Source: a cyanobacterium endosymbiont of Epithemia turgida isolate EtSB Lake Yunoko
GTDB lineage: Bacteria > Cyanobacteriota > Cyanobacteriia > Cyanobacteriales > Microcystaceae
Assembly (NCBI RefSeq): GCF_000829235.1
Contig: NZ_AP012549.1
Coordinates: 2,430,001 to 2,462,000, forward strand
Direction of reading: 5' to 3'
DNA length: 32,000 bases
The translations under genes were made by a program, and so were the position numbers. Below are positions 7,393-27,109 of the stretch, one piece after another (the stretch's first letter is position 1; each line of letters starts with the position of its first letter). The notes under the pieces were generated by a model that made no database searches, was not told the DNA's origin, and was given only the letters and a program-made list of their open reading frames with translations.

Positions 7393-8388
7393 ATGCAGGT
7401 TATTTTTTTTGGAACCCCAAAATTTGCCATCGCTACGTTGCAACGGTTGCTAAATCATCCTGATTATAAAGTTATAGGAGTTGTTACTCAACCCGATAAA
7501 CGACGGGGACGGGGTAATCAATTAGTACCCTCTGCTGTCAAAAAAGTTGCTCTACAACATAATTTACTTCTCTGGCAACCTAAAAGAATCAGAAATGCGC
7601 AAAAGATCCTCTCTGAGCTTAGAGAAGCCCAGGCAGATGTCTTTGTTGTGGTGGCTTATGGACAAATATTATCCCCTGAGATCTTATCTATTCCTAAACG
7701 AGGCTGTATTAATGTTCACGGCTCAATTTTGCCCCAATATCGCGGAGCAGCTCCTATTCAGTGGGGTGTATATAACGGGGAACAACAAGTAGGGGTTACT
7801 ACTATGTTAATGAACGAAGGAATGGATACAGGAGATATATTGCTTAAATCTGTGAAATATATTGGATTATTAGATAATTGTCAGCAAATTACTGAAGAAC
7901 TAGCTCAAAATGGGGCAGATTTGTTGTTAAAAACCTTACAAAAACTAGAAGTTGGGGATATTATTGCCACTGCTCAAGATCCAACAGAAGCCACCTACGC
8001 TCCACTAATTCAAAAATCTGACTATAAGATTAATTGGTCTAGATCCGCAATCGCCGTTCATAACCAAGTACGGGGATTTTATCCTAATTGTATCACCAAT
8101 TTCCGTGACCAATCCCTGAAAGTTATGGCGACCATTCCGTTAGAAGATATTGATTGGGAGTCTTTACCCTCTGCGTTTCAACCCCTTCGGCAACAAGCAG
8201 CAAAATTACCAACTTTTAAAGGAACCCCAGGGGAAATCATGAGTAACATTAAAAATTTTGGACCTGTGGTACAGACAGGAGAAGGACTGCTTCTCTTAAA
8301 AGAAGTACAATTATCGGGAAAACGCCGTCAGTCAGGGTGGGATTTTTTAAATGGAACTCGTGTAAACGTGGGAGAAAAATTTTTTTAA
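7393..8388 (+). CDS. fmt: Methionyl-tRNA formyltransferase
   Basis: 331 aa with an ATG start. N-terminal FFGTP..A and HGSILPQYRGAAPIQ motifs plus a C-terminal Fmt domain. Confidence 0.9.
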   Translation: MQVIFFGTPKFAIATLQRLLNHPDYKVIGVVTQPDKRRGRGNQLVPSAVKKVALQHNLLLWQPKRIRNAQKILSELREAQADVFVVVAYGQILSPEILSIPKRGCINVHGSILPQYRGAAPIQWGVYNGEQQVGVTTMLMNEGMDTGDILLKSVKYIGLLDNCQQITEELAQNGADLLLKTLQKLEVGDIIATAQDPTEATYAPLIQKSDYKINWSRSAIAVHNQVRGFYPNCITNFRDQSLKVMATIPLEDIDWESLPSAFQPLRQQAAKLPTFKGTPGEIMSNIKNFGPVVQTGEGLLLLKEVQLSGKRRQSGWDFLNGTRVNVGEKFF

Positions 8389-8646
8389 CTAACTTTAGGA
8401 TGATTTATGGGCTTATATAAATAAGATCCCTTATAATGTTGGTTAGAATTTACTAAACAGCGCATTGTCTCTAAATAAGTTGTAATACAGTAAGGAATAT
8501 CTATAATTATCCAACGGACATTCAATATTTTTTTCTGAGGGGTTAAGTCAATTAGACATAAAAAAACTGTACTCAAAAACAGCCATCAACTTTGTATTAA
8601 TAATGATGATGGCGTTCAAGCACCATATAAATTTATCTTTTTAATT

Positions 8647-8695
8647 CTAGATAATTACCAACCTGAAGTATCCAATCAACTTGGTAATTATCTAG
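8647..8695. repeat. Inverted repeat, 15-bp perfect arms (ctagataattaccaa / ttggtaattatctag), 19-nt loop
   Basis: Arms at 8647-8661 and 8681-8695, verified base by base. It lies about 260 nt downstream of the fmt stop. Confidence 0.7.
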
Positions 8696-10377
8696 GGTTT
8701 GATGAGGATGGAGTAAGATTATCCTTATTGGTAAAGACTGTGTTTTCACTTTTGAGTGGCATTGGCTGACTATACTAGTTAATTATAGCGTTATCTTTTA
8801 GCTTTTTAATCAATCTAGCTCATATCGTGATCGCTTTTTTAAAACAATTATCATCTGTATAATTGCCATTAGATTTAAATTTAAATTAGATCAAAGTATT
8901 CTAATTAGTTTAGCTGATTCTACGGTTAAAAAATTTCGTTAAAGATAAATAAGTTTACTAAACCAAATCCTAAAATCGGAGCAGAAAGACTACTACTGCA
9001 GCCATAGTGTTTATGGCTCCATAGCCAGCGCTTAAAATAAACAGACTGACACTAAGGACATTTCCTATTGAGACTGCTAATCTTTTTCGAGACGACAGAC
9101 AGAATCTTGTAGGGGGATAATTCCTTTTTTTAGCGGATTTTTTTTTTATAAGTAACTATTGAATGATCGATAAAGTAAAAAGTAACTTTGAGAAAAGATA
9201 TTATGGTGAGTAATTAAGCCCGAAGGATACATTTTAAAACCTGAAACAAAATAATCTCTAACTAATAGAATAAAATAACCTCTCAACTACTTCTATCTGA
9301 AAAGACGAAGGGTAAGTGAACAGGAGTTAGATATTATTGACAGATAGACTTAAATATAATCTAGTCCAGAAACATAAAGGGATTGTAAAAAATAAAGGAT
9401 AAAAAATCAACAAAACAGAGGAGATTCTCAAAATAGGAGATAGCTATCGGTACTCTTATAAAGAAATTAATAGCTAAGGCTAAGTTCCATTATACTTGAT
9501 CACTGAATCTTAATGTTCGGACTTTAGCCGCTTATTCGAAATATTTGATAATTTATCTCATGACCAAAAATAAAGTTTCATAGTATAAACATCTAAAAAA
9601 TTACAGTTCTCAGTCAAAAAAGAAAAGTAACATTCAATTAAAAACTTAGAGATAAAGGAAAATAGGACGACAGTTTATTCAAAAGAGTTATATAAAGTCA
9701 AGGTTTTAAAAAATTTTTACAAATAATATTGTTATATTTTATTTTGCTAAGATTATCAAAACTTAAATAAAGCATTATATCTTAAACTTTACTGGCATCT
9801 TATTTTAAAGCAAAAGCTAACAGCTCAAACATAAAAACTATGTCACTGACAGAGAATAACACTAACTAAAATGTTCAATAAGTAGAAAAATTCGGTTGAA
9901 TAATATAAAGATTAGGTATTTTTTAAACATTGTAAAAACAATAAAGAATTGTTGTTTCTAATCAAACACTTAATCAAGTAGTACTGCTGACAGCATAAAT
10001 GACTAAATGCATTGTTGACAATTCTAGCAGGAGCTTAGACCTAATCAACATATTAAAACTTCAAGAAAACCCATAGCCAGTCATAGTTAAATATCCTAAC
10101 TTTGTTAAAGTGATTTCTCTTGCCTGATGGGGTTTCAAAACAGTATGTAAATATCCTGAAATACTATGTTTTTTACATTAATCAAAAACGATATTAACTG
10201 AAACAGATGAAAATAAAATAGGGAAGAAAATAGTTGTAATTCAAAACAAAATCTAAGCAGAAGAAGATTTCATCAAATGGTTAAGAATCATCGCTCCACA
10301 GTATAATAGAAAAACAAGCTCTTGTTATTTTGATAACAATATAAAAATATTTTTAAAAGCTTTAACTGACTGTCACA

Positions 10378-10413
10378 ATAAGACAAAATAATCCCCTCAT
10401 CCTAAAGAGGGGA
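10378..10413 (-). terminator. Rho-independent terminator of infC
   Basis: G+C-rich 7-bp stem (10392-10398 tcccctc / 10407-10413 gagggga) with an 8-nt loop. In minus-strand sense it is followed by ttattttgtcttatt. It sits 58 nt after the infC stop. Confidence 0.65.
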
Positions 10414-10471
10414 GTTAACGAATTTAATTGCCTAAATGTGACTATGTTATCAACAGTTTTTTAGTCTTTCT

Positions 10472-11002
10472 TTACTTCTTGGGGGTTAAGAACATCATCA
10501 TATTTCGTCCCTCCCGTTTAGGAATTTGTTGAATGTCAGCGATGTCTTTAAGATCTTGAGCCATACGGTCTAGTAAATTTAAGGCCAAATTGGAATGTTG
10601 AATTTCTCGACCTCGGAATGTAACCGTCGCTTTAACTTTGTCACCAGACTTAAGAAAACGTTTGGCTTGATTAATACGTACCATATAATCGCTTTCGCCG
10701 ATTTTATAACGCATCTTTACTTCCTTAACGTCGGCTGTATGCTGCTTTTTCTTGGCTTCTCTGGCTTTTTTCTCCTGTTCAAATTTATATTTGCCATAAT
10801 CCATGATTCGGCAGACAGGAGGTTTAGCAGTTTCACTCACCAAGACTAAATCAAGCTCCTTTTCTTGCGCGATGGTTAAGGCTTCATCAGGAGTCAGAAG
10901 ACCGACTTGTGCACCATCGCTATCGATGACTCGGATTTCAGGAAAACGAATTCTTTCGTTGATTTTGGGGAGATCCCGTTGAGGGCGTCTTTTATCTATC
11001 AC
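10472..11002 (-). CDS. infC: Translation initiation factor IF-3
   Basis: 176 aa. [37 protein letters not shown] and KEVKMRYKI are typical IF-3 N- and C-domain sequences. The called start is GTG (11002-11000) followed by ATA. Confidence 0.9.
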
Positions 11003-11187
11003 AGGCGTTTGTTGTTATATCTTAAATAGATGGACGAACTTAAGTGAATATAAATGAATAGGGTAACTAATTTCATTTTACTAACTTTTAACTAGGTTCT
11101 ATCTTAAATACGAATATTACTTTTTGTTTGTGATCATCTATCTCAAGATTGGGATTTGATTCACTCATGTCGATCATTATCCGATAA

Positions 11188-11239
11188 ATTTTAGATAGTA
11201 CACATTGACAAATTATGTCAAATGTGTACTATCTAAAAT
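11188..11239. promoter_or_regulatory. 52-bp near-perfect palindrome carrying a consensus TTGACA on each strand (candidate bidirectional promoter or operator)
   Basis: 23 bp pair (11188-11210 with 11216-11239), with one bulged A and a 5-nt loop aatta. Plus strand: TTGACA 11205-11210, N16, TACTAT 11227-11232. Minus strand: TTGACA 11221-11216, N15, TACTAT 11200-11195, pointing at infC 186 nt away. Confidence 0.45.
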
Positions 11240-12319
11240 AGATAAAGTAATCACTAGTAAAACCACGGTCAACCTCAAAAAATAGTTTCCTTTCAGTTTA
11301 ACACCAATTGTCCATTAACTCTTTAATCCTCATGAATTCTAATCGAATAAAAGCTCACAGAGCACTAAAAAAGTAAGTTAAGATCATCTCATATTTTTTA
11401 AGCAAGATTTTATCAGTTCCACATTATTACTTTAGGACTTAAGAGTAACATTCAGTAATTTAATTTTTCGACTGAAGAAATATATCTTTAGTAACTACAT
11501 TTAAGTTTAAGTCCTCAAAAGAATATAGTGTCGATTAGTATTATCTGTAATTTTTTTTAAAATTTTAATTTTCCCAAGCTCTTTGAAATAAATGATTATA
11601 TGATTTTCCTTTGTATCTAGACTTTCAACTGACTGTTACTCTTCTTTTTGGATTAAGAATTATCGATTTTAGCTATTCTTGTTTTCCCCTAATTTCTGGT
11701 TATTATATAAGCTCTTACATATATCATGCTGAACAAACAATTACAGCCTAAATATTGAGATTAAGAAATAAATATAAAAGTCTAAATGAAAATTGGACGT
11801 TTACTTCCTCATGATGATTCGGATCACTATCTCCTCTTTTCTGTTAATTTTTTTCTTTAGTTTCAGCAACCAGTTTATATTTCAACACATTTTATATTTA
11901 AGTTTTTCTGTCAATACATAATACCTAAAACTTATCAATGATTTTAATGGAAACTATTAAAAATCTTGACGATACCGGGTTTTATATTTTTTTCTGCTTA
12001 TCCTTAATGATTATTTTAGAATAAATCAATTTTTAGGATGTGTAACAGCAAGATTGGATTTAGCGCGGTTGGAAGATTCGATATACTTATTTTCGATCAA
12101 TGATAAATCAGTTAATATCTAAGTGAATAGACAAGAATATTTCTTAAAGACTATATGCTAAACAAAATATTACCTAGGAAGAGTTAGATAAGCTACAGTA
12201 TTATAAGTATTTTTTTCCTTTTTTTTGTGTGATGCATCAGAAATGTTTTTTTGTGTAACATGCTATGCTAACACACTATCTAGTTCTTTTAAGAAATACA
12301 ATTATACCGAACTGATGAT

Positions 12320-12372
12320 ATAAAATTAACCAGTAAAATTTAAAATCTGAGAATTTTACTGGTTAATTTTAT
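12320..12372. repeat. Inverted repeat, 21-bp perfect arms, 11-nt loop
   Basis: 12320-12340 (ataaaattaaccagtaaaatt) pairs perfectly with 12352-12372 (aattttactggttaattttat). It lies in the middle of the infC-msrA spacer. Confidence 0.75.
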
Positions 12373-13006
12373 GTAACCTATAGATCAATAATCTCTTTTT
12401 AAAATCAATTTTTATTTGTTGTTAATTACACTTTTATATGAAAAAATTACATATGGATATATTTGATAGATATTTTGGATATAAATAGTGAAGTTTTCTA
12501 TACTTGATTTAATACAACTTTTTTTTGCTTGACTATATTTTTCTGAAGTTAAATAAATATATTCTTTCTTAAGAGGGCTACAAACCAATTTTTAAAAATT
12601 TTAATTTGATTGTCTAGTTGACACGTATTTAGTTTGAACTACTAATTTATTGACAGTATTCTGATGAAATTTTTCAATATATATACTAATATTTATGATA
12701 ATTTTATTTTGATAGTTTAGTATATTTTTTATATTAAAAATACTTAATTTTTCTCTAAATTTATTTTCATATCATAGATATGTCAATATACTATGGAAAA
12801 TTTATGTATTTTAAATAAATAGCTGGTTTTAAGCTGATTTAAAAACTTAAAATCAAGCATAGTGTTATTATCATTTATTACTTATATTGTTCCCGTATAT
12901 CTTATAATATTAGCACATAATTCAATTGAGCAATAACACCTTTAGGTTTTTATTAAGCTTCTAAGTAGTCCAAATTACTAAAGGTCCTATGGTAATTAAC
13001 TAAATA

Positions 13007-13052
13007 TTACTACTTCTTAGTAATAAATTATTTTATTACTAAGAAATAGTAA
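13007..13052. repeat. Inverted repeat, 21-bp arms with one mismatch, 4-nt loop
   Basis: 13007-13027 pairs with 13032-13052, with a single mismatch at 13013/13046. It lies about 110 nt downstream of the msrA stop on the minus strand. There is no clear U-tail, so terminator status is uncertain. Confidence 0.65.
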
Positions 13053-13162
13053 ATTTTTCTGAGATAAACAGATATTTTTTATTGACTCAAAAGATAAATA
13101 GTTAATATTTTATTCGAATTTGAAATGAACTTAACACCTGATAGAAAATAATTGGTCAATAG

Positions 13163-13825
13163 TTAATTACCTGTCGTATTGAAACCAGCAGGAAAAATAA
13201 CATTTATTCCTTCCAAACCACAATAACCGTTAGGATTTTTGGCAAGATACTGTTGATGATAAATTTCTGCATAGTAAAATACAGAAGCATCCAAAATTTC
13301 CGTAGTAATTTTGCTATATCCCATTTCAGTTAATGCTTTTTGGTAAACTTCTTTAGAAGCTTCTGCTTGTTGTTTTTGTTCGGGGGAATAAACATAAATT
13401 CCTGAACGATATTGAGTTCCTATATCATTTCCCTGACACATTCCCTGGGTGGGGTTATGACTTTCCCAAAATATCTTTAACAGTTGTTCATAGCTAATAA
13501 TTTTGGGTTCAAAAACTACTAACACTACTTCATTATGACCCGTAAGTCCGGTACAAACTTCTCGATAAGTAGGATTAGGAGTTAACCCGGCTGTGTACCC
13601 TACTGCAGTCGTATACACCCCTTCAAGTTGCCAAAATGTCTGTTCCGCTCCCCAAAAACATCCTAATCCAAACATTGCGGTTTTCATTCTTTCAGGAAAG
13701 GGACATTTAATAGGATTTCCATGAACATAGTGGAAAGTTGAGACGAACATTTTCGCTTCTCGCCCAGGCAATGCTGTCTCAGAAGTAGGCATAGCTGATT
13801 TTTTACCAAATCCAAATAATTTCAT
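13163..13825 (-). CDS. msrA: Peptide-methionine (S)-S-oxide reductase
   Basis: 220 aa with an ATG start. It has the active-site motif GLGCFWG plus YRSGIY and HQQYL. Confidence 0.9.
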
Positions 13826-14182
13826 AGTTTTTTACCTAAATAAATATCCTATTCTTATCTTAAATAGAAAAAATCGCTTCTTCAAAGTTATAGTTAATCA
13901 CTACCACATCCACCACATTTATTGTAACTACTGCTGCAACCATACTCTGAATCTACTCCCCTCTTAAGAGATAGCCAATTTCATCTACACGTTGTTTCTT
14001 CACTACTTAAACTTCCAAAATTAAAGAAATCACTAATATGAGTAACATAATATTCAGGACATTTTTTATATATTTCTTTTGAAGAAGTAGTATTTTTAGT
14101 GATCAAAACTTTTGCCCAGTAAACTAACTTATAAACTTATTTTATTTTCGGTTTAACTTGGATATAATTCTTTATAAGTTAT

Positions 14183-14238
14183 AATGATTCCTAGTATATA
14201 TAATTAATAATTATTAATTATATATACTAGGAATCATT
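14183..14238. repeat. 56-bp perfect palindrome with no loop (cruciform-capable)
   Basis: aatgattcctagtatatataattaataa | ttattaattatatatactaggaatcatt. Every one of the 28 pairs was checked. Only 8 of 56 positions are G/C. Confidence 0.9.
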
Positions 14239-14921
14239 GATTATATAACGTTATTATTGATTTTTATATTAAAACTAATTAATCAGTATTAATATTTATT
14301 TTCTATTTATAAAAAGATCAAAACTATTGTATTTATTCTATGATTTTCCTATAACTATCTGAGATATAAGTAAAATTTTTTTACCTTTACCTATTATTAC
14401 CCCTCAGTAAAAATTAAATCCGTTCCAGGAGTTTGTTCTCCTATGGCTGTGGCTTCGGTTTTAACCCTTCCTTTAACGCTTAGGAATCAAAGGTTAGCTT
14501 TCTTCCTATCCTTTACAGCTTAGAGGACTTAGAACAAACATTGGGGTGGGCTGATATAGTGCTGTTGTTAAAAGTTAGTTCGGTCTACTCCCAAGTGTGG
14601 TAAATTTTGCGACGGTTAAATTTATTAGAGCACGCTTGGGTGGTGGAACAGGCGACTCAATCGGATCAAGTCATTTATGATGAGTTGGAGGAGCAATCAA
14701 ACCTTCTACTTTCTTATTTTTCCTTTCTCCTTTCTCATTATTTACGTCAAGCCTAGCGATCTTCGCAACTCAATTTAACGTCCTATAAACCTTTTCTTTA
14801 TTAGGTTTTAGGATTTTAGCTAAAAAAATATAGCTTTTATTCCAGTCAAAATTATGTCAATTAACTGCCGACTTCGACAATAGTAAATATTGGATATCAT
14901 TAACTTTCTTGAGCAATTCCT

Positions 14922-15154
14922 ATGAGTGTTACTACCCTTCCTATCCTTAAGTCCTCTTTAAGATGTTCATCATATAATCAGTATTATCACTAATCAAGTC
15001 CGTCAACTTGTCAAAAAAGAAACGACGAGTCGTCATAAACCTAATTAATATCCTTTGCGAGTGTGTCTCCCCTCGTGAATGGGTATATGTGAAAACAGAA
15101 TTAGAAAGATATAATTATTTACTACGAGATCAAATCGGCAATCCGATTAAATAA
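14922..15154 (+). pseudogene. Frameshifted relic of a small (about 77 aa) unidentified protein
   Basis: ATG at 14922 opens MSVTTLPILKSSL. The protein-like reading continues only by changing frame twice: DVHHIISIITNQVRQLVKKETTSRHKPN*, then ILCECVSPREWVYVKTELERYNYLLRDQIGNPIK* ending at 15154. Local G+C is higher than in the surrounding spacer. Confidence 0.35.
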
Positions 15155-15299
15155 CCAGCCTCAGTACTAGCCAACTGGTTTGAGATACTCTTTTAAGTCT
15201 CGGACACGTCCATCCTTGACCGTCAATAAAACTTTAGCTACAAAGAAAGGGATTTGGATCAATATTTAGGATTACAAAACAGTTCAACAAAACCCGCTC

Positions 15300-15434
15300 C
15301 TATGTGAGGCTATTCGATAGCCCTTTAAGATCAACCATCAACTCATCAATTTTTTCTTTAAGAGTTTGAGCAACTTCAGGACTAAAATTAAAGCTGACGG
15401 GTCCTTGAACTAAGTTTAGTGTCAGTTGCGTCAT
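15300..15434 (-). CDS. Unannotated 44-aa ORF (MTQLTLNLVQGPVSFNFSPEVAQTLKEKIDELMVDLKGLSNSLT), possibly a truncated relic
   Basis: ATG at 15434 and TAG at 15300-15302, read by hand. The composition is non-AT-biased and protein-like. I recognised no family. Confidence 0.25.
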   Translation of the reverse strand: MTQLTLNLVQGPVSFNFSPEVAQTLKEKIDELMVDLKGLSNSLT

Positions 15435-15974
15435 TGATAAAAAATACAGCATGTAAGGATATCTTCACAACTACTAGATACTCCCCACTTGGGAGAGAAT
15501 GTAACTCTAAATAAAGATAAATTACTTATTATGCATATCAATTTTACTTATCTACCGTCAAAGACAGAATACTATAGTTTTACCCTATTTATCTATGTTT
15601 TCAGGGAATGTTAACAACTTTTGTTAGAAATAAGTGAACCTTATAGTAGGTAGTAAACTGTCGACGTTAATGGGAGTTTCCTGCGTTTTCAGTTTAAATT
15701 GAGATCTAAGCTATTTATCATCTAAATCAACATGTTGAGACTAGAAAGATAAGGGAGTGAGAGGAGGAGAAATGGACGGTTTTCATGAGGTTAGAATATA
15801 CCCAGTCCAGATCCATAAAAACCTTGCTTAAGCTCCTCTATAAAACTTGACAAACGTCGATACTAGTGTGGTGTGCTTGAGTATCCTATAATAAATGTAT
15901 AGATTCAGTATAGTTGGTGTTTTAACTAATAACTCCTAAGACGACTACCCCAATTATCTAAACACTTATAAATC

Positions 15975-17459
15975 ATGTTAAACCCATTTGAGACAACTAC
16001 TATACTCTTGATCGTTTTGGTCGCCTCGGGGATTTTAACCTGGGGTTATAACAGAACTAAATTCTATGGTAAATCAGTAGTTTTTGCCGAGTTGCAGTCG
16101 TTAGCATTGATAGCTCCCTGGCTAGTATCTTTCGGGTTATTTGCTGCCGGAATTTATCTTAATTTAGTTACAATTTTATTGTTGTTGGTAACTTCATTAG
16201 GAGTATACATTTATTTAGGAAAAAAACTAAGAGCTGAAGGTCAAGACGTCATCCTAAAAAAAAAAGTCGCTGACGGTTTACAAGAACAATGTAAAGCTGA
16301 GAATTCTCAAGTCAATCAATCTGAAAGGACTCATCTTGATTCTAACCTGAAAATTGTAGCAGATACTCTACCTATTCCTAAAGAAGATCTTAGACTGATT
16401 AAAGGCATATTTGGCATTGATACATTTTTTGCGACTGAAACAATTTCTTATCAAGAGGGAGCAATTTTTAAAGGTAATTTACGAGGGGAACCTGACACAG
16501 TTTACCATCACCTTTCAGAAAAATTAAAAGCTCGTTTTTTTGATAAGTACCGTCTCTTTTTAGTAGAAGGAACAGAAAAAAAACCTGTAGTGATAGTGCT
16601 TCCAAGTATTGTTGATCCACGACCAACCACCTTAGTGCAGAAAAATATCGCTTTGGTCCTGTTTGTAGCAACTATTTTAACTAGTTTAGAAGCATCAGGA
16701 ATTCTGTTAGGATTCGATTTGTTCAGTAACTGGAGTCGTTATCTAGAAGTTATACCCCTTAGTTTAGGACTGTGGACAGTTTTAATTGCCCATGAGATTA
16801 GTCATCGTCTTCTTGCAAAACATCACAATGTGCGCCTGAGTGTTCCATTTTTTCTTCCCACCTGGCAAATTGGATCGTTTGGGGCAATTACTCACTTTGA
16901 ATCCTTACTGCCTAACCGAAATGTCTTATTTGATATGGCTTTTGCTGGCTCTGCTGCAGGATGGGGATTTTCTTTAGTATTGCTGACGGTTGGATTGGTA
17001 TTGTCTCATCCAGGAAGTTTGTTTCAAGTACCTACTCAGTTTTTTCAAGGCTCAATTTTAGTTGGCAGTTTAGCTCGGGTGGTGTTCGGAGAAGAACTAC
17101 AAAAATCGCTAATCGATGTTCATCCATTAGCGATTATAGGATGGTTAGGATTAGTTATTAATGCTCTTAATTTGCTTCCTGCGGGTCAGTTAGATGGGGG
17201 ACGAATTGTTCAGGCAATTTATGGAAGAAAAACTGCAAGGAAGACTACAATAGTGTCCTTAATTGTCTTAGGAATTGTAACATTAATTAACCCCCAAAAT
17301 TCTCTTCCTCTTTATTGGGTAATTGTGATTCTTTTTCTCCGACGAGACTTAGAAAGACCAAGTTTAAATGAGTTAACTGAACCTGATGATACCCGTGCTG
17401 CGTTGGGTTTATTAATCATATTTCTTATGTTAATGACTTTAATTCCTTGGTTTTTCTAG
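15975..17459 (+). CDS. M50 site-2 protease family membrane metalloprotease (EGY-like)
   Basis: 494 aa and polytopic. It has an HExxH motif (AHEISHRL) and a second metal-ligand motif NLLPAGQLDGG. Confidence 0.85.
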   Translation: MLNPFETTTILLIVLVASGILTWGYNRTKFYGKSVVFAELQSLALIAPWLVSFGLFAAGIYLNLVTILLLLVTSLGVYIYLGKKLRAEGQDVILKKKVADGLQEQCKAENSQVNQSERTHLDSNLKIVADTLPIPKEDLRLIKGIFGIDTFFATETISYQEGAIFKGNLRGEPDTVYHHLSEKLKARFFDKYRLFLVEGTEKKPVVIVLPSIVDPRPTTLVQKNIALVLFVATILTSLEASGILLGFDLFSNWSRYLEVIPLSLGLWTVLIAHEISHRLLAKHHNVRLSVPFFLPTWQIGSFGAITHFESLLPNRNVLFDMAFAGSAAGWGFSLVLLTVGLVLSHPGSLFQVPTQFFQGSILVGSLARVVFGEELQKSLIDVHPLAIIGWLGLVINALNLLPAGQLDGGRIVQAIYGRKTARKTTIVSLIVLGIVTLINPQNSLPLYWVIVILFLRRDLERPSLNELTEPDDTRAALGLLIIFLMLMTLIPWFF

Positions 17460-18320: not shown

Positions 18321-19118
18321 TCATCTCGATGGTTGTATTTCTGAAAAATGTGGATACTTTATATAGAATCCAGTCAAAATCAATAAAATAATGCCAATAG
18401 TTCCAATTCCCAAATAACTAGGAACCCAAAAAGAGGCTTCAATAGTATTGATTTGACCAGGTTTTAATTCCCAAATAATCTGATGTTTTTTTTGCTTAAA
18501 AGAGGTATTACTAACAATATTTTTAAGTCCAAAAGGAGCTTTTAGAATAAATTCTAAGTCTACTAATGATCCTGTACTAAGAATAACATTGCCCTGACTC
18601 GATAAAATTCCTAACGCTCGTAAATCTACTTCTAGATTAAGTAAATTATGTTCTATAAATAGCCAATTATCTTGTTTTAAAGACATTTTGGCTTTAAGGT
18701 TCACTAAATCTGAATCGTTGTCCTTAAGAGACTGAGTTTTTCTAGACGTAGGAAAATTTAAAAATTTATTGAATTTCTCAATCAGTTCTTTACCATTCCC
18801 GAAAGGAATTTTGACAATAATCTCTCGGGGAGATATCCGTTTAGCTTTTCCTTGAAGATTTTCTGCCCGTTTTTCAAGGCTGTCTAACCATTTATTCACT
18901 TCCGTTTGACTTAAGTTAGTTAACTGTTCAGTCAAGCTAATATGTTGTACAATTTCTCCTCGATGTTGTTGAAAAAAATCTACACTTACACCATAGTGAA
19001 CACACCCACTTAATAGGGTTAATAAACTAATGACTAGAGGCGTTAAAAAAAACCTTAACAAACCACTAAATGCCTGATTTTTACTTTTTTTATTGAAATA
19101 CTGTTCTTGATTTTTCAC
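18321..19118 (-). CDS. Conserved cyanobacterial lipoprotein with C-terminal TM anchor (tentatively DUF3153-like)
   Basis: 265 aa. It has a lipobox LLSGC after a hydrophobic segment and a C-terminal TM (LGIGTIGIILLILTGFYI). The start is GTG, 26 nt after the stop of the RNB gene, so they are probably co-transcribed. The family name is from memory only. Confidence 0.6.
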   Translation of the reverse strand: MKNQEQYFNKKSKNQAFSGLLRFFLTPLVISLLTLLSGCVHYGVSVDFFQQHRGEIVQHISLTEQLTNLSQTEVNKWLDSLEKRAENLQGKAKRISPREIIVKIPFGNGKELIEKFNKFLNFPTSRKTQSLKDNDSDLVNLKAKMSLKQDNWLFIEHNLLNLEVDLRALGILSSQGNVILSTGSLVDLEFILKAPFGLKNIVSNTSFKQKKHQIIWELKPGQINTIEASFWVPSYLGIGTIGIILLILTGFYIKYPHFSEIQPSR

Positions 19119-19144: not shown

Positions 19145-21400
19145 TTAGTCATCGTCCCAATCATCATTTCTAGCGAAGCTTCCACCCCCGACAGTTACTA
19201 AATCAATCTGCTGGCGATAATAATCTACACTTTTTACCTCTACTTCAACTTCATCGCCTAAACGATAAGCAATGCGATTTTTTCGTCCCACTAAACAACC
19301 ATGACGAGCGCGATATTCATACCAATCATCTTTTAAAGAACTAACATGAACTAGTCCTTCCACCAATAGGTCTTCAATTTCGACAAAGAAGCCATAAGAT
19401 TGAACTCCCGTAATCAACCCTCGAAAAACTTGGCCAGTGCGTTCTTTCATTTTTTCAGCTTTCTTCAAGCCATCGAGATCTTTTTCTGCGTCTTCAGCTA
19501 ACTTTTCACGGTCGTTAAGATGAGAAACTAAAATGTGAAATTCTTCTTCAAGACTTTCTTGTATAGCAGGGGGTAAAACATTCCAGTTAATATCAATATG
19601 ACAACGACTGCTGTGGAGATCTACCCCTGTTTTAGTCTGTTTGGTACGACGATCACGCCCTTCACTGAATAATAACTTAATCATACGTTGTACTAATAAA
19701 TCTCCATATCTTTGACCAGGAGAAACACAATGAGTATAACAGTCATGATAAGCTAAGCCGAAATGGGGAGCCGAATGACTGCTGTATTTAGCAGATTTTA
19801 GGGTATCTTTCAAAAGAAAATTTAACACCCGCACCGATGAACATTGATTAAATCCTCGAGTCAAATTGTAATAATCTTGAGCGGTAATCTCCTCTTCGGA
19901 AGACAGTTGTATATCTATTCCTAAATTATCTACCAGTTTCAGTAAATCTTCTAATTCTTCCCAATCAGGCTCAGGTTGAGCACAATAAAGGGAAGGAATT
20001 CCTAAAGCGTAAAGATGATCCGCTACCGATTTTCCTGCTAGGATTATCAACTCCATCAACAGCGAGCGCACAGGAACCTTCGATGAAGCAATAATGACTC
20101 CTAAACGTCCTTCATCTTGATAAGGTGATCGCGGCTCTAACTGTAGTTCAAACCCTCCTCGTTGCAACCGTTGTGCTTTAACTAAGGGACTAAGAGTCAA
20201 AAATAGTTGCTTAAGACATTGAGCTAATTCTTCTTGTTCGGCAGACAGCTGGTCAAAATGGGTTAATAACCCTTGAGCTTCTTGGTAGGTCAGTTGTTCA
20301 TTAACATTAATAACTGTTGGGTGAATTTCGAATTCAGTCATTTGACCATTTTTATCAAAGGTAATTAACACTGAGATGGTTAAACAATCCTTTTCTGGGA
20401 CAATACAACAACAGTCAGTTAAAGCCTTTGGCAATAAGGGAAGGACTTTGTCACCTAGATAAATCGTTGTCCCTCGTTTTTTTGCCGTTTTATCGAGGAG
20501 CGAATCAGGGGTAACATAATGGGCAACATCAGTAATATGAACACCTAATTGCCAGTACTGATCGGGAATTTGTTCAAGCGTAAAAGCTGTTTCAACAAAA
20601 GGAGGGTGGTCTCGTTGCTCATCTTCAACAAAGGTAAACGTAAACTTTTGACGTAAATCAACCCGCCTATCAATTTCAGCTCGATCAACAGTTTTTGGTA
20701 AAGCTTCCGCCAGTCGTTCCACCGCTTCGGGGAAAATTTGGGGCAAATCGTGTTTACAACAGACGATATCTGTATCAGCAGCTTCTTCGGCATCACTTCC
20801 TAAAATGCGGGTAATAGTTCCCCAGGGGGGATGTTCTCCAATCGGATAGCGTATTACCGAGACGTGAACTAAATGGTTGACTGCTTGTTCTAAACTATTC
20901 TCCTCATTCTGTTTAAGTAGAAGTTCAAATAATAAGCGATCATCGAGAGGAATCGCTTTATAATCTCCATTATCTTTTTTTACTTGAGCAAGTAAAGATG
21001 GATTTGCCCGTTCCAAAATCAGTTTAACTTCTCCTTCTGGAGAACGACGACGAGTGCCTTCTTTAATCACTTTGACAAGGACGCGGTCACTGTTCCACGC
21101 ATTGCTAAGATGGGTTTCTCGTATATAGATATCATCAGCGTCTTCTTCATCTTGAATCGCAAAACAAAAACCTTTGCTTGAACAACGTAATTTAGCTTCA
21201 ACCAGATTTTTCTCAATAGAACGGCGATATTTTCCTCTCTCCTTAACTAAAACTCCGATTTTTTCTAGAATATCTAAAATTATTTGGAGCTTTTCGATGC
21301 TTTCTTCATCTTCACACCCCAACTTTTTCTCCAGAAATTTAGCCGCAACTAATTTGTCATCTGTAAAATTGGACAAAAGTGTAGCGATTGAAAATTCCAT
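19145..21400 (-). CDS. RNase II/R family protein (RNB domain plus C-terminal S1 domain) with non-canonical catalytic motifs
   Basis: 751 aa with an ATG start. RNB landmarks are present: HITDVAHYV, RGTTIYLGDKVLPLLP, HFGLA and a C-terminal S1 fold (GLITGVQSYGFFVEI). Motif I reads TFVEDEQRDHPPFVETA and motif IV reads YTHCVSPGQRYGDLLVQR, in place of the canonical TIDxxxxxDxDDA and YxHFTSPIRRYxDLxxHR. Confidence 0.8.
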   Translation of the reverse strand: MEFSIATLLSNFTDDKLVAAKFLEKKLGCEDEESIEKLQIILDILEKIGVLVKERGKYRRSIEKNLVEAKLRCSSKGFCFAIQDEEDADDIYIRETHLSNAWNSDRVLVKVIKEGTRRRSPEGEVKLILERANPSLLAQVKKDNGDYKAIPLDDRLLFELLLKQNEENSLEQAVNHLVHVSVIRYPIGEHPPWGTITRILGSDAEEAADTDIVCCKHDLPQIFPEAVERLAEALPKTVDRAEIDRRVDLRQKFTFTFVEDEQRDHPPFVETAFTLEQIPDQYWQLGVHITDVAHYVTPDSLLDKTAKKRGTTIYLGDKVLPLLPKALTDCCCIVPEKDCLTISVLITFDKNGQMTEFEIHPTVINVNEQLTYQEAQGLLTHFDQLSAEQEELAQCLKQLFLTLSPLVKAQRLQRGGFELQLEPRSPYQDEGRLGVIIASSKVPVRSLLMELIILAGKSVADHLYALGIPSLYCAQPEPDWEELEDLLKLVDNLGIDIQLSSEEEITAQDYYNLTRGFNQCSSVRVLNFLLKDTLKSAKYSSHSAPHFGLAYHDCYTHCVSPGQRYGDLLVQRMIKLLFSEGRDRRTKQTKTGVDLHSSRCHIDINWNVLPPAIQESLEEEFHILVSHLNDREKLAEDAEKDLDGLKKAEKMKERTGQVFRGLITGVQSYGFFVEIEDLLVEGLVHVSSLKDDWYEYRARHGCLVGRKNRIAYRLGDEVEVEVKSVDYYRQQIDLVTVGGGSFARNDDWDDD

Positions 21401-22669
21401 TTACCTATTAATCTTCCTTACTAAATGTGAGTGGATCTTATTGGTGGCTGGAATCATAGAAGAGTAGTTGCTCGACAGCTCCCTAAACTGTTACGTCTTC
21501 TATACCCAACACCATGAAGAAAGAACTTTTCTTTCTTCAATGAGGAGATTGCCTAGTTAGGGAGCTTAGCTAACTAAGATTGTGGCTCAGTTAAGTGATT
21601 ACTGTCTTTATTCTGTCTTCATTCTTAAGATTTTAATCTTTAGAATGGCTAAGTTAGCTTTCCTAATTATACCTCTGTTTACAATCGAGAAGCGACCCTT
21701 GATATATCTGGATTTGCCGCATTATTTATTGCTGGAGCTCTAATCCATATTAGCAGTGAAGTTGCTCCTAGGAATCTTTGATTTTGTACTTGAAAAGTAG
21801 TGTCCTACGAGAACAGGGTGAGAGTTGTATTATCTAATGAGAAGGACTACTTTCATTGGAAGTCAACTCTGTCGAAAATGATTGTAAAGAACTAATTCGT
21901 GAACACTTCCCTTTCACAAACTTATCCGGATTTTAATTTTACCAAGGTAACGTGATACTTACGAGGTTTGTCTTTGACAAAAGTGAAAGTAAATGTTGAT
22001 TTTTATCTCATTTTAGATTCCTCTAACAAGTTGCGTAAGCCCACAGCGCAGCCTTTCATGTCAAACCATAAGACTTTACTACTTCACTAACTTTGTTCAT
22101 ATAGAAAATGTTGCCATTTATTCACCTCTATCCAGATATTTATAAAATTAGCGTTAACGACTATCCATCAACTGTAAATGTATTGTTTTTTTACTATCAG
22201 AAAAGCTTTTCTACTAGTTTTAAACTTTTTAGTGTTTTTGATTGTCTGGCAAAACCCAGGCACCTTTATCTTCAACAGCTAGGGCAATGGGGTTCGTTCT
22301 TTAATTTTCTAGCTCGTTTCTAGGTGTCGATTAGACTTCATTTTATCTTCTTTTCTAGCTTCATCGTCAAGCCTTGAGCACATTTTTATCCTGATATCGC
22401 AGGTATATTTCCCTACGGCTCGATACGTTCCGTTCGTTTATAACATAGGGCTTACCAACATTATGAGAGATAGGTTTACCCGGATATAGAAATCTCTTTT
22501 CAAGAGCAATATAAAATATTTCCACAAAAAGGAATTCTAAACTTCACGAATCCATAAAATCAAGATGTGTTTATATTTGACTTGTTTTTCTCCAATACTT
22601 TCCTACCTTTATTTACTAATAAAGTACAAATAAACTTAATAAAAATAGTAGCGAGTAGCTCAAAAAATT

Positions 22670-23397
22670 ATGTTGACTCAATTCAGAATTCTTTATCCTC
22701 AAGGCGGTGTAATCAGTGAATTAGTAGCAATTGATCACAGAAAGTATAAGTTAAAAACCATGAACCATTTTTTTCTTCTAAGGTTCCGAACATTTCGGTA
22801 GTTGATCAAACCTACTCTAAAACACCGTTACCGGAGTAACAAGTTCCAGTTGCGACTTCTGTCAAAGTCCCCTAAACGCCAGAGGCGAGCTCCTCTGAAC
22901 CATCAGCTTTTGCTGAAAAAACTACAAGCCAATCTTGAAGCCAAGTATTATATATTTCTAACATCAATGAAATCATAATTGAACCAGTGGAGAAAGTTTT
23001 CCTCAAACCCTCCTTAGTAGAAGAAAATTATACTAATCATAATGATAAATTAGCTGAACCGATGTAAGAGGTTTCCTTAAGCTCTTCTAAAATACAAGAA
23101 ACATTTATTTCAACACCAGAGATAGGCAAAATTTCAATGCCAACGACTATCATACGCCAAGAGCTTCCAGACGTATCTTCTTCGAAAGAAAAATCTCCCC
23201 TAACGAAAATTGAAGAACCTCTTGAGTTTTCGGAAATTATTGCCCGTTCTAATACAGAAATCAAGTGTTTAGGCTAGACACAAGTGCAAGGACGCGAATA
23301 TTTGATTCAAACTTATGGAAATCAATCACGTTAAGTTCTTTCTAATGAGGAGCTCATCGAATTTCTTTATTACCTCCAAAGTTTACCAACTTCTTAA
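22670..23397 (+). pseudogene. Pseudogene of a conserved cyanobacterial hypothetical protein
   Basis: It starts MLTQFRILYPQGGVISELVAIDH. After stops and frame changes comes a P/S/T-rich linker. The C-terminal module reads EEPLEFSEIIARSNTEIKCLG*TQVQGREYLIQTYGNQSR*VLSNEELIEFLYYLQSLPTS*. TAG at 23275 sits where I expect a conserved Trp, and TAA at 23332 where I expect Gln. The total length is not a multiple of 3. Confidence 0.7.
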
Positions 23398-23470
23398 CTT
23401 TTCCTGAAAATCGAGGGAAAGAATTACTTTTAAAAATAAATCAGTAACGCTTGCTAGCTAAACTAATTTA

Positions 23471-23495
23471 GGGGTTAACCGTCGCCGTTGACCCC
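23471..23495. terminator. Hairpin between the convergent pseudogene and clpP (candidate bidirectional terminator)
   Basis: ggggttaac cgtcgcc gttgacccc forms a 9-bp stem with one wobble and is G+C-rich against an AT-rich background. It starts 25 nt after the clpP stop. The flanking T-runs are weak. Confidence 0.5.
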
Positions 23496-23519
23496 TACCT
23501 TGGGTTTTACCCTAATTTC

Positions 23520-24128
23520 CTAATTAACAGTAGGAGGAGGATTGCTAGCCGAAGGACGACGGTTAATCACTTGGTCAATCAATCCATATTTTTGAGATTC
23601 TTCAGCGGACATGAAAAAGTCTCGTTCCGTATCTTGAGAGATTTGCTCAAGGGGCTTTCCTGTGTGATGTGCTAAGTGATTATTGAGGAGTTGCTTTAGA
23701 TAAAGAATCTCTCTAGCTTGAATTTCAATATCTGTGGCTTGTCCCTGGGCGCCTCCGAGAGGTTGGTGAATCATAATACGAGAGTTAGGCAAGCTCATCC
23801 TTTTTCCTTTAGCTCCTGCACTGAGAAGGAAAGCTCCCATGCTAGCAGCTAACCCAATGCAGATTGTAGAGACATCAGGACGGATTTGGTTCATAGTATC
23901 AAAAATTCCTAGTCCTGCTGACACAGACCCCCCTGGAGAGTTGATATAAAGATAAATGTCTTTTTCTGGATCTTCTGCTTCGAGGAATAATAACTGAGCA
24001 ACGATAAGGTTAGCATTTTCATCTCTGACCTCTTGTCCCAAAAAAACAATGCGTTCGCGTAACAGACGAGAGTAAATATCAAATGCGCGTTCACCACGCC
24101 CAGAAGTTTCAATAACGGTAGGAATCAT
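23520..24128 (-). CDS. clpP: ATP-dependent Clp protease proteolytic subunit
   Basis: 202 aa with an ATG start. Ser-His-Asp triad contexts are intact ([29 protein letters not shown]). The N-terminus reads [19 protein letters not shown]. Confidence 0.92.
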
Positions 24129-24703
24129 AAAGTCTCTATTTTTTGGTGTCTTCCTTTTGATTTTAGCGAGTTTGTTCGTGTGTTGAACCTCCTATTTTTT
24201 AAACGATACATTAACAAGTTTTATCGAATACGCTTTATACTGCGACAAGCTACAGTTAAAATATACTAATAATGTCAAGTCAAACTATATTTATATTCAT
24301 TTAAAATTCTACTTAATTTACTTGTATATTCATAACTCAGAAAGTTATAAGTCTTGATTATAGTTAATATAGGGCTAGTGCGTTATTCGATGAAGTGCTC
24401 AACAAAAACGCAAAGTAGCGTGTCGAGAACTATAATAAATAACATTGGGGTTTAGTCAATAATTTTATAGAAGAAAAGACTTTTATCTTTAAATAATCAA
24501 ATAAATATCCTTCGCTTATGACGTTTGTCGAGTTTACTCTGTATCCAGACTAATTGCTGTTTTGGCTTTAATCCCTTAATCTTCGCCTTGACTATAAATC
24601 AGCTGATAAGTACAAAGTTTCTGGTGTTTGTAAAACTCCCGACAAAACTTCATAATTGGAACCAATAGAAACGATATCAACAAGCTTACTCGGTTATGCA
24701 GTT

Positions 24704-24742
24704 TTTTCGTTGTGATTGTAACTTTGAAAATCACAACGAAAA
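24704..24742. repeat. Inverted repeat, 14-bp perfect arms, 11-nt loop
   Basis: ttttcgttgtgatt (24704-24717) pairs with aatcacaacgaaaa (24729-24742). It lies about 180 nt upstream of the M16 pseudogene. There is no U-tail in either orientation. Confidence 0.7.
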
Positions 24743-24924
24743 CCGCCCTTATTTAACTAATCTTTTAGTTAGAGCTAACATTATTAAAATTAGATAAACT
24801 ATTTTTAGGGTAATACACTTTTACTTTTGACATTGAGTGAGCGATATAGCTCCCTGATTCTACCGAGCCCAAAAAGTTTAATATTTATATAAATGTAACC
24901 GTTATTTAAAAATCACTTATTACT

Positions 24925-26219
24925 TTGACTTTGCTTAAAACCTCAGCGTTCAATGTTTCCACAATCCATATTCTTTCCAATGGGTTGACCATCATGGCTG
25001 AACAAATGCCAGTTAAAGTGATCAATTTAAACCTCTGGTTAAAAGTAATATCTACGTTGTAATTCAATTATCTTAATGGGATAGCGTATTTATTAGAATA
25101 TATGATTTTCAAAGGAATCTCTCACCTCAAAAGGAGAGAATTTGAACGATTACTTGAATAACAAGGAGCACTGACCAATGCAGCGACTCTCCAAGAGAGT
25201 ACTTATTACTACATCAATTGTGTGCTCCAAAATTTCAAAGACCTTGCCCCATTGCAATTAGATGTGATCTTTAATCCTAATATTGCTGATGAGGCATTTG
25301 AACGAGAACGGTTAGTAGTTTTAGAAGAAATCCACTGGTCGAATGATAATTCTCGTCTTGGGACTTTTTACAGGGCGATGGAGCCCTGTTTTAAGATTTT
25401 GCCCTATTGTCGTCGCGTGCTAAAACCAGCATCCACCATTAAAGGATTAATTGCCCAACAAATGCGAGACTTTCACAAAACTTAGTATCAACTTGAATTG
25501 GTAATAGCACTGACAGTAGGTAATCTTTCTGTAGAAATGTTAATTTACATTTTAGCGACGAGTTTGAGTCAAACCTGTAAGTATTCTAGAATTAAGCCCC
25601 AAAATAAGCAAAAGAGAAAAGAGGTTAAGTTTTTATTTAAAGTTTCTTTTGCTAGAATTGTGCGTCGGGAATTTGATGATTCCAGTGTACGGTAATCTCG
25701 CTTAATAATGATGTGGCAAGTTCCTGAGTTAGTTAAATTAGATAGAATCTATGCTTTGAATGTATTAGCAGTTATTTTAGGGCAGAGAAAAATCTCGCGA
25801 TTATGTCGGGATTTACGCGAAGACAAGAAGTTAGTTTCCCGTATTAACGTTAACAATATAACCCCCAAAATTTAAGACATATTTTATATATTAGCTCAAT
25901 GACTATCAGAAAATGTTCTGGAGGTGGAACGAATTATCATTGAGTAAATTACCAATATCAGGCAAATATCAGTGATTGAAACTGAATTGAATTGTGTACG
26001 AATTCAGGTAGCTAATCGGTTTGTATTTAGTAGTGAAAGTCCGAGCAATCGTACTCATCTTTATGGGGATTATTATTCTCAGTTACAGTATTTGGAATCA
26101 GCTTTGATCTATCCAATCGTATACAAGCTCTGAGTTTAGAAAATATCCAAGAAGCTGCTTTTGATTATTTGTCTTCTAAAAACTATAGGATTAAGGGAGT
26201 ACATTCTACTCATAAATAA
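24925..26219 (+). pseudogene. Pseudogene of an M16 (pitrilysin-family) zinc peptidase / processing protease
   Basis: A single frame from 24925 reads LTLLKTSAFNVSTIHILSNGLTIMAEQMPV...NGIAYLLEYMIFKG...LVVLEEI...QQMRDFHKT*YQ... There are in-frame stops at 25060, 25159, 25483, 25693, 25873, 25900 and 25945, and one frameshift near 26100. The natural TAA is at 26217-26219. The expected zinc motif HxxEH is YLLEY (TAT at 25087 and 25099). Track ORFs 25222..25485 and 25498..25695 are fragments of it. Confidence 0.85.
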
Positions 26220-26239
26220 TTATTAATTACTAAACAAAA

Positions 26240-27109
26240 ATGTGGACACAAATTGCTCAACATATTTCTCAGGCTACTCAACAGGAGTTTCGGACTAAAA
26301 ACCGACGTTCTGTTAATGGAGGTTGTATCAATCAATGTTACTCCTTAATTGGGGATAACATTACCTATTTTGTTAAAATCAACCAAGCTTCCCAGGTAGA
26401 AATGTTTGCGGCTGAAGCATTGGGTTTAAAACAGATATCAAACACTAAGACCATTCGTGTTCCTCAACCAATTTGTTGGGGAATAGCAGAAAAAACTAGT
26501 TACATTGTACTTGAATGGATGAAATTTGGTCGAGGGACTAATCAATTTTGGGAGGAGATGGGACGTAAATTGGGGACGATGCATCACCATCAAGGGGCTG
26601 ATCAATTTGGTTGGGAACAAAACAATACGATTGGTTCTATCTCTCAGATAAATATTTGGACTGATAGTTGGGCAGATTTTTTTGCAGAATACCGTATTGG
26701 TTATCAATTGAAGTTGGCAAGACGACGTGGGGGAAATTTTCCTGACTGTACTCAAGTTGTGGAAATGGTTAGGGAATTATTAGCCCATAGACAACCTAAA
26801 CCTTCTTTGGTACACGGGGATTTGTGGTCAGGAAATGTAGCGGTAACTCAGGAAGGAGAACCGGTTATTTTAGATCCTGCTACTTATTATGGCGATCATG
26901 AAGTTGATCTAGCGATTACAGAACTGTTTGGAGGATTTGGGCGTGGATTTTATAGAAGCTATAATGAAGTTTTTCCTTTAGAAAAAGGTTATCAAAAACG
27001 AAAAATGATTTATAATCTTTATCATATTATAAATCATTTTAATTTATTTGGAGGTGGATATAGAGCCCAGGTTAATCAAATGATTCAGAGAATTATAACT
27101 AATGGATAA
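26240..27109 (+). CDS. Fructosamine/ketosamine-3-kinase family protein
   Basis: 289 aa with an ATG start. It has the kinase motif LVHGDLWSGN, DPATYYGDHEVDLA and an N-terminal NGGCINQCY. It starts 20 nt after the stop of the M16 pseudogene. Confidence 0.85.
   Translation: MWTQIAQHISQATQQEFRTKNRRSVNGGCINQCYSLIGDNITYFVKINQASQVEMFAAEALGLKQISNTKTIRVPQPICWGIAEKTSYIVLEWMKFGRGTNQFWEEMGRKLGTMHHHQGADQFGWEQNNTIGSISQINIWTDSWADFFAEYRIGYQLKLARRRGGNFPDCTQVVEMVRELLAHRQPKPSLVHGDLWSGNVAVTQEGEPVILDPATYYGDHEVDLAITELFGGFGRGFYRSYNEVFPLEKGYQKRKMIYNLYHIINHFNLFGGGYRAQVNQMIQRIITNG

Follow-up and report, generated by a model that had tools for sequence, protein, structure and literature searches.

The zam gene and its product

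The window considered here is the whole stretch of DNA that was analysed, 32,000 nucleotides from the genome of the spheroid body (diazoplast) of the diatom Epithemia turgida, isolate EtSB. On its reverse strand lies zam, a gene for an RNase R-like protein in which the canonical active site of the RNB family is degenerate. A preliminary description of this DNA had reported an intact open frame of 751 amino acids (aa) here, and this frame is confirmed. The interval that it singled out, 19685..20644, corresponds to zam residues 253-572 and reaches from motif I to motif IV. The gene and the parts of its product are as follows.

19145..21400, minus strand: zam gene, open over 751 codons, encoding the intact 751-aa RNase R-like protein
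21017..21193, minus strand: CSD1, the Pfam OB_RNB domain, residues 70-128
21164..21184, minus strand: CSSKGFC with C73 and C79, in the L12 loop of CSD1 (from the translation)
20729..20950, minus strand: CSD2, Pfam PF17876, residues 151-224
19667..20665, minus strand: RNB domain, Pfam PF00773, residues 246-578
20585..20635, minus strand: degenerate motif I, TFVEDEQRDHPPFVETA (from the translation and alignments)
19685..19738, minus strand: degenerate motif IV, YTHCVSPGQRYGDLLVQR (from the translation and alignments)
19565..19648, minus strand: Zam-specific insertion between the RNB and S1 domains (...CHIDINWNVLPP...), residues ~585-612
19199..19441, minus strand: S1 domain, residues 654-734 (Pfam)

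The protein begins with an N-terminal helical region, followed by CSD1, CSD2, RNB, and S1. Its RNB domain scores 265.3 bits against a Pfam gathering cut-off of 29.3 and covers model positions 1-324 of 326. Among the NCBIfam models, the RNase R equivalog TIGR02063 requires 597.85 bits, and the protein falls short of this with 477.7; it passes the VacB/RNase II superfamily model TIGR00358 alone (376.4 against 368.6). The AlphaFold model of EtSB Zam has a predicted local distance difference test score (pLDDT) of 88.2 and a predicted template modelling score of 0.83, with most of the RNB domain above a pLDDT of 90. Its best Foldseek matches are the RNase R structures 8cdu, 5xgu, and 7did, with template modelling scores, normalised to target length, of 0.79-0.84. 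The zam protein is thus a member of the RNB superfamily with an RNase R-like fold. By sequence and by predicted fold, RNase R is the nearest known bacterial system: the B. subtilis enzyme (8cdu) matches EtSB Zam at 342 bits, and both it and E. coli Rnr (5xgu) have the same domain order.

Identity as Zam

An exact-sequence look-up returns the zam product as BAP18403.1 / WP_044107244.1, a 'ribonuclease R family protein' of the Epithemia turgida endosymbiont. In Table S1 of Thomas et al., 2022 (PMC9145284), WP_044107244 is the reciprocal best hit of Zam from PCC 7002. The exact match and this listing together establish orthology to the Zam of PCC 7002 and PCC 6803, and bear out the earlier suggestion that the protein might belong to the divergent Zam-like paralogue class. 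The finding is therefore already known, in that the family is published and the exact protein is part of a published data set. The UCYN-A Zam of Thomas et al., WP_041487771, clusters with a representative (P0030) that is 71% identical to the query. Synechocystis sll1910 and PCC 7002 Zam are absent from the 120 matches listed and from the 80 loci.

EtSB Zam has the CSD1-CSD2-RNB-S1 architecture, the degenerate site, and the cysteine pair in common with its characterized orthologues, Synechocystis sll1910 and PCC 7002 WP_012307157. To the Zam clade within the RNB family, Thomas et al. ascribe a canonical active site marked by 'extreme degeneracy' and a conservation focused on the three OB-fold domains. 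They further report that C73 and C79 of CSD1 are invariant, redox-active, and essential in PCC 7002, where the C73S and C79S mutants phenocopy a zam deletion. The two cysteines of EtSB Zam stand at the identical numbering in the translation; they are invariant in 73 orthologues and absent from canonical RNase R.

The same genomes encode a second RNB-family paralogue, the cyanobacterial Rnb (Synechocystis sll1290), which is WP_044107596 in the E. turgida endosymbiont according to Table S1 (PMC9145284). The active site of Rnb is canonical, and Rnb is an essential protein with proven activity of the RNase II type, whereas EtSB Zam is the other paralogue.

Loss of the canonical catalytic residues

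MAFFT was used to align E. coli rnb and rnr (MG1655) with the query and the 120 homologues that score best against it. The set of 121 sequences had been aligned with --retree 2, and L-INS-i served for a smaller subset. Key residues of E. coli RNase II correspond to EtSB Zam in the MAFFT alignment as follows.

D201: V258
D207: falls within an insertion of 4-6 residues
D209: E270
D210: T271
E390: M449
R500: Q563 (in SPGQRY)
Y253, Y313, F358, E542: retained

The proper alignment with RNase II and RNase R places no Asp at the catalytic positions, so that the canonical residues are missing, as had been proposed from an alignment by eye. The motif I and motif IV strings quoted in that proposal are exact. 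For motif I, its reading of the first Asp as Val, accompanied by an insertion, stands, but the DD pair corresponds to E270-T271 and not to VE, an error of one residue. Motif IV is degenerate as it had stated, with SPGQRY against SPIRRY and Gln at the position of R500. In a phmmer comparison with the PDB, B. subtilis RNase R has TIDGADAKD----LDDAV opposite TFVEDEQRDHPPFVETAF and SPIRRY opposite SPGQRY. The invariant His of canonical motif IV is also replaced, by Q571. EtSB Zam therefore has neither the four Mg-binding Asp nor the catalytic Arg by which a canonical RNase II/R is recognized. In E. coli RNase R numbering it lacks D272, D278, D280, D281, and R571, and it has in addition the CSD1 Cys pair and an insertion of ~28 residues before S1.

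An exhaustive HMMER search covering 1.84 billion cluster representatives supplied the canonical relatives for comparison. The four Mg-coordinating Asp are at least 95% conserved in 61 of them (60 representatives and E. coli RNase R), and, of the top 150 representatives, the 129 that count as canonical relatives all have D/D/D/D/R. Because all 129 keep these residues, the degeneracy of Zam is not due to chance.

The degeneracy is ancestral in cyanobacteria

The best homologues of EtSB Zam are full-length proteins of 744-755 aa from the free-living Rippkaea orientalis PCC 8801 (80% identity) and Crocosphaera (74-78%), followed by Gloeothece, Hydrococcus, Stanieria, Chroococcus, and others. All 120 best orthologues, including the free-living ones, carry ..[FW][IV]E[TN]A[FL][TS]LE.. 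instead of ..DDA.. and SPG[QK]RY instead of SPIRRY. Across the 121 aligned sequences, the D210 position is occupied by N, T, Q, or S; at the R500 position, 95 have Q and 24 have K. At the D201 position, EtSB Zam has V whereas most Chroococcales orthologues have E.

The same character states extend well beyond these close relatives. Among the cluster representatives scoring above ~360 bits (P0121-P0141), motifs I and IV are degenerate in every one that spans both, and nearly all of the full-length ones have the Cys pair at query positions 73/79. From P0142 downward, all have D/D/D/D...R and none has the Cys pair. The degenerate representatives come from Synechococcus elongatus, Pseudanabaena, Thermosynechococcaceae, Gloeomargaritaceae, Thermostichales, and Cyanobium/Synechococcus; since all of the named members are cyanobacterial, the clade appears restricted to this phylum. 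Judged on these sequences, Zam is a distinct clade that spans the cyanobacteria and is limited to them, with the split in character states at ~355 bits.

The presence of the same substitutions in free-living orthologues and across the phylum means that the degeneracy is ancestral and not specific to this lineage. The idea that it belonged to the reduced genome of the endosymbiont is thereby overturned. Nor is the EtSB protein unusual for its family: of 352 columns conserved to 90% or more, it deviates at 7, and the median for 73 orthologues is 8.

One feature of the RNB domain is confined to the diazoplast orthologues. This is a tri-cysteine run, DCCCIVPEKDC, at residues 330-332 (window 20405-20413, minus strand); relatives have RCSL or RYSL at this site, and canonical RNase R has one conserved Cys.

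Conservation across the Zam clade

The distribution of conserved positions was assessed in an alignment of 25 phylogenetically spread Zam sequences, the 61 canonical relatives, and E. coli RNase II. Within the Zam clade, columns conserved to 90% or more make up 37% of CSD1, 38% of S1, and 14% of CSD2, and 4% of the RNB domain. Several residues are invariant in Zam and are not invariant in the canonical enzymes, among them R72, C73, C79, W102, N103, R118, and S120 in CSD1, and Q667, Y669, K690, W693, E695, and R706 in S1. Q571 is likewise invariant in Zam, at a position that is His in 100% of canonical enzymes. The insertion before S1 is marked by conserved residues of its own (K590, W606, V608, and L609), at whose columns 93-97% of canonical RNase R sequences have a gap. 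No mention of this insertion was found in the available part of the Zam paper (PMC9145284), and it is mildly new.

Within the RNB domain, the 25-sequence Zam alignment shows no conserved cluster of acidic or His residues that would be specific to Zam. This makes an alternative catalytic centre shared by the whole clade unlikely.

Purifying selection on zam

Ratios of nonsynonymous to synonymous substitution rates (dN/dS) were calculated by the Nei-Gojobori method from orthologous coding sequences taken from genome loci. In the lines that follow, the three diazoplasts are those of R. gibba, R. gibberula, and E. clementina, and the genes listed after zam are its neighbours.

zam, EtSB against the three diazoplasts: 0.066-0.081 (synonymous divergence, dS, 0.20-0.27)
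zam, EtSB against Cyanobacterium sp. uoEpiScrs1: 0.060
zam, EtSB against unicellular cyanobacterium SU2: 0.077
zam, free-living pairs: 0.048-0.108
ClpP, same three diazoplasts: 0.067-0.093
DUF3153, same three diazoplasts: 0.25-0.40
M50 peptidase, same three diazoplasts: 0.20-0.27
Fructosamine kinase, same three diazoplasts: 0.22-0.28

The constraint on zam matches that on ClpP, and its dN/dS is 3-5 times below those of DUF3153, the M50 peptidase, and fructosamine kinase. Within the endosymbiont clade the values lie between 0.06 and 0.08, no higher than in free-living pairs, and the earlier supposition that the gene is under selection is borne out; the purifying selection is strong. By domain, dN/dS is 0-0.02 for S1, which is the most constrained part of EtSB Zam in this clade, 0.017-0.07 for CSD1, and 0.07-0.11 for RNB. 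The gene is intact in the endosymbionts of E. turgida, E. adnata, E. clementina, R. gibba, and R. gibberula, and in uoEpiScrs1 and UCYN-A; counted by genome, seven diazoplasts or more, and UCYN-A besides, have a whole zam under tight constraint.

Shortened copies occur in a few other records. Two metagenome-assembled genomes of Rhopalodia endosymbionts, both complete chromosomes, have zam products annotated as 'partial', P0323 (561 aa) and P0326 (446 aa). One is without CSD1 and the other without both ends, and they are ~97% identical to intact orthologues, which suggests that the gene was disrupted very recently or that long-read assembly introduced a false indel. In Crocosphaera sp. XPORK-15E (locus L009, NZ_JAYGHQ010000021.1 from 6001), the zam frame ends after 281 codons while tblastn covers query residues 1-743, which points to a frameshift or nonsense mutation in a free-living strain, or to a sequencing error.

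Genomic neighbourhood

Two features flank zam in the window.

18321..19118, minus strand: DUF3153 (PF11353) membrane-protein gene, 265 aa, beginning 26 nt past the zam stop
~22655..23391, plus strand: decayed remnant of a divergent upstream gene (tblastn fragments, 41-82% identity)

A scan for terminator-like sites found none between zam and DUF3153, and promoter-like sites occur at chance level. Judging by this arrangement, the two genes are probably co-transcribed. DUF3153 lies downstream of zam on the same strand at 52 of 79 orthologous loci. The pair is present in diazoplasts, Crocosphaera, UCYN-A4, Microcystis, Prochloron, and Pleurocapsales, and among the 79 loci it is lacking or went undetected in those of Spirulina, Halothece, Xenococcus, and Geminocystis. 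zam and DUF3153 may thus form a conserved operon, which could bear on an old reading of the zam phenotype in terms of transport. Some Zam orthologues carry names of this kind: P0004 and P0024 (Cyanothece UBA12306 and Hydrococcus rivularis) bear the label 'iron ABC transporter substrate-binding protein', and P0325, from the R. gibberula endosymbiont, as 'putative transport protein'. These names were probably inherited from the old transporter hypothesis, or are annotation errors.

The upstream remnant has intact counterparts in free-living relatives, divergent from zam and upstream of it, in the form of open reading frames (ORFs) of 300-380 aa (L006 4417-5400, L008 3818-4954, and L017 4461-5360), for which no Pfam family was found. 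At ~22655-23391 no ORF of more than 75 aa is left. The preliminary description had argued that neutral ORFs close quickly in this genome, and the fragmented remnant, as an internal control, shows that ORFs free of selection do close here. ORFs of at least 120 aa cover ~48% of the window, and long ORF-free gaps occur at ~8388-10472, 11002-13163, 13825-15975, 21400-23520, and 24128-26240. An ORF-poor window of this kind fits the pseudogene-rich spheroid-body genome of ~33% GC.

A probable regulator on an RNase R scaffold

The zam gene of the E. turgida spheroid body very probably encodes an ancient RNase R paralogue, found only in cyanobacteria, that would serve as a non-catalytic regulator binding RNA and RNase E. 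The loss of the four Mg-binding Asp and the catalytic Arg from the RNB domain of Zam preceded the diversification of the cyanobacteria. By analogy with the orthologues described in the literature, EtSB Zam is most likely no canonical 3'-5' exoribonuclease, and would instead act as a regulator built on the RNase R scaffold that binds RNA and RNase E. A disulfide between C73 and C79 may serve as a redox switch, as suggested by work on orthologues, and the canonical exonuclease activity would be supplied by the separate Rnb of the same endosymbiont. An RNA-binding pseudo-enzyme had been among the options raised in the preliminary description, and it agrees with the conclusion of Thomas et al., 2022.

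Published work on orthologues supports several of these steps. Thomas et al. observed no nuclease activity for PCC 7002 Zam and found Rnb to be essential and Zam dispensable (PMC9145284). Anabaena PCC 7120 Alr1240 ('AnaRnb', PMC7144899), which Thomas et al. place in the same orthologous group, likewise lacks D209 and most key residues of RNase II, as compared by its published description. Alr1240 binds RNase E's catalytic domain through its CSD and S1 regions and raises RNase E activity, and the regions that bind RNase E there are the most conserved ones in EtSB Zam. A dead RNase II/R fold can also persist as an RNA-binding regulator elsewhere, as yeast Ssd1 (PDB 7am1) illustrates. This RNB pseudonuclease is matched by the EtSB Zam model with E = 1e-33; however, it represents an independent loss of activity in eukaryotes, with no orthology, Cys switch, or RNase E partner.

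The alternative that deserves most attention is that Zam, the EtSB copy included, is a working RNase II-type 3'-5' exoribonuclease with non-canonical catalytic residues, for example displaced acidic residues of the motif I loop together with E270. A number of observations favour it and weigh against a purely regulatory protein. The motif I loop of EtSB Zam is rich in acidic residues, with five of them (E259, D260, E261, D264, and E270). E270, at the D209 position, is nearly invariant among Chroococcales-level orthologues, being E in 117 of the 121 aligned sequences (the query and 120 orthologues). The RNB domain is itself strongly constrained in the short term, with a dN/dS of ~0.1. According to Zhou et al., 2020 (PMC7144899), recombinant Alr1240, and likewise its RNB domain alone, broke down single-stranded RNA in vitro, both 16-mer and 30-mer, and stalled at duplexes, and the R558A mutant was weaker yet active; these authors proposed that a different set of catalytic residues is used. 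The inactivity of PCC 7002 Zam, for its part, is given as 'data not shown' for an aggregation-prone protein (PMC9145284). The literature on orthologues is thus in conflict over the nuclease activity of Zam.

Nevertheless, a nuclease of this kind is improbable. No acidic residue of motif I is conserved across the clade, as seen in TVRIGNAAAIS of Pseudanabaena and TLAIASDPAHPLDAALS of S. elongatus, and the sparse conservation of the RNB domain, described above, offers no other cluster of candidate residues. RNase II depends on R500 for its activity, and in Zam this position holds Q, K, or H. In PCC 7002, Zam is reported not only to be inactive but also to be unable to replace the essential Rnb (PMC9145284). 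Moreover, the activity of Alr1240 outlived mutation of its presumed key Arg, and contamination by an RNase of the E. coli host would give the same result. Zhou's R558 aligns with K501 of E. coli RNase II (R564 in EtSB), not with R500 (Q563), which would account for the indecisive outcome of the R558A mutation.

The last alternative, that zam once encoded an RNase R and has only begun to decay, being held open by chance or under relaxed selection, could appeal to the AT-rich, pseudogene-rich genome, to ORFs that cover only about half of the window, and to the pseudogene directly upstream, but it can be set aside almost entirely, because zam is intact where its upstream neighbour has decayed, evolves at the level of ClpP, deviates from conserved columns no more than its orthologues do, and shares its degenerate residues with every free-living orthologue examined.

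Implications for the function of Zam

The degenerate RNB domain described here represents no new pseudo-enzyme and is no sign of ongoing gene decay. The mildly new points are the strong conservation of zam in a non-photosynthetic endosymbiont and the conserved zam-DUF3153 gene pair; they leave the verdict unchanged.

Photosynthetic acclimation is the sole class of Zam phenotype described to date, comprising effects on phycocyanin synthesis and on the ratio of photosystem I to photosystem II. In contrast, EtSB zam resides in a non-photosynthetic, N2-fixing endosymbiont of a diatom. The spheroid bodies of E. turgida and R. gibberula are without photosystems, and that of E. turgida is also without chlorophyll synthesis (PMC5638926). 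Since the published phenotypes are photosynthetic and zam is constrained where photosynthesis is absent, the function under selection must be more general. That an endosymbiont which sheds genes retains zam speaks for a core role of the protein outside photosynthesis. We tentatively suggest that this role could be a housekeeping one, the redox-sensing control of RNA turnover, and not photosynthetic acclimation. If so, it might be tied to the diel cycle of nitrogenase and respiration, and Zam might be functionally linked to the DUF3153 membrane protein encoded downstream. EtSB zam thus constitutes a natural experiment, and a compact system in which to address the conflict between Zhou et al., 2020 and Thomas et al., 2022 over nuclease activity.

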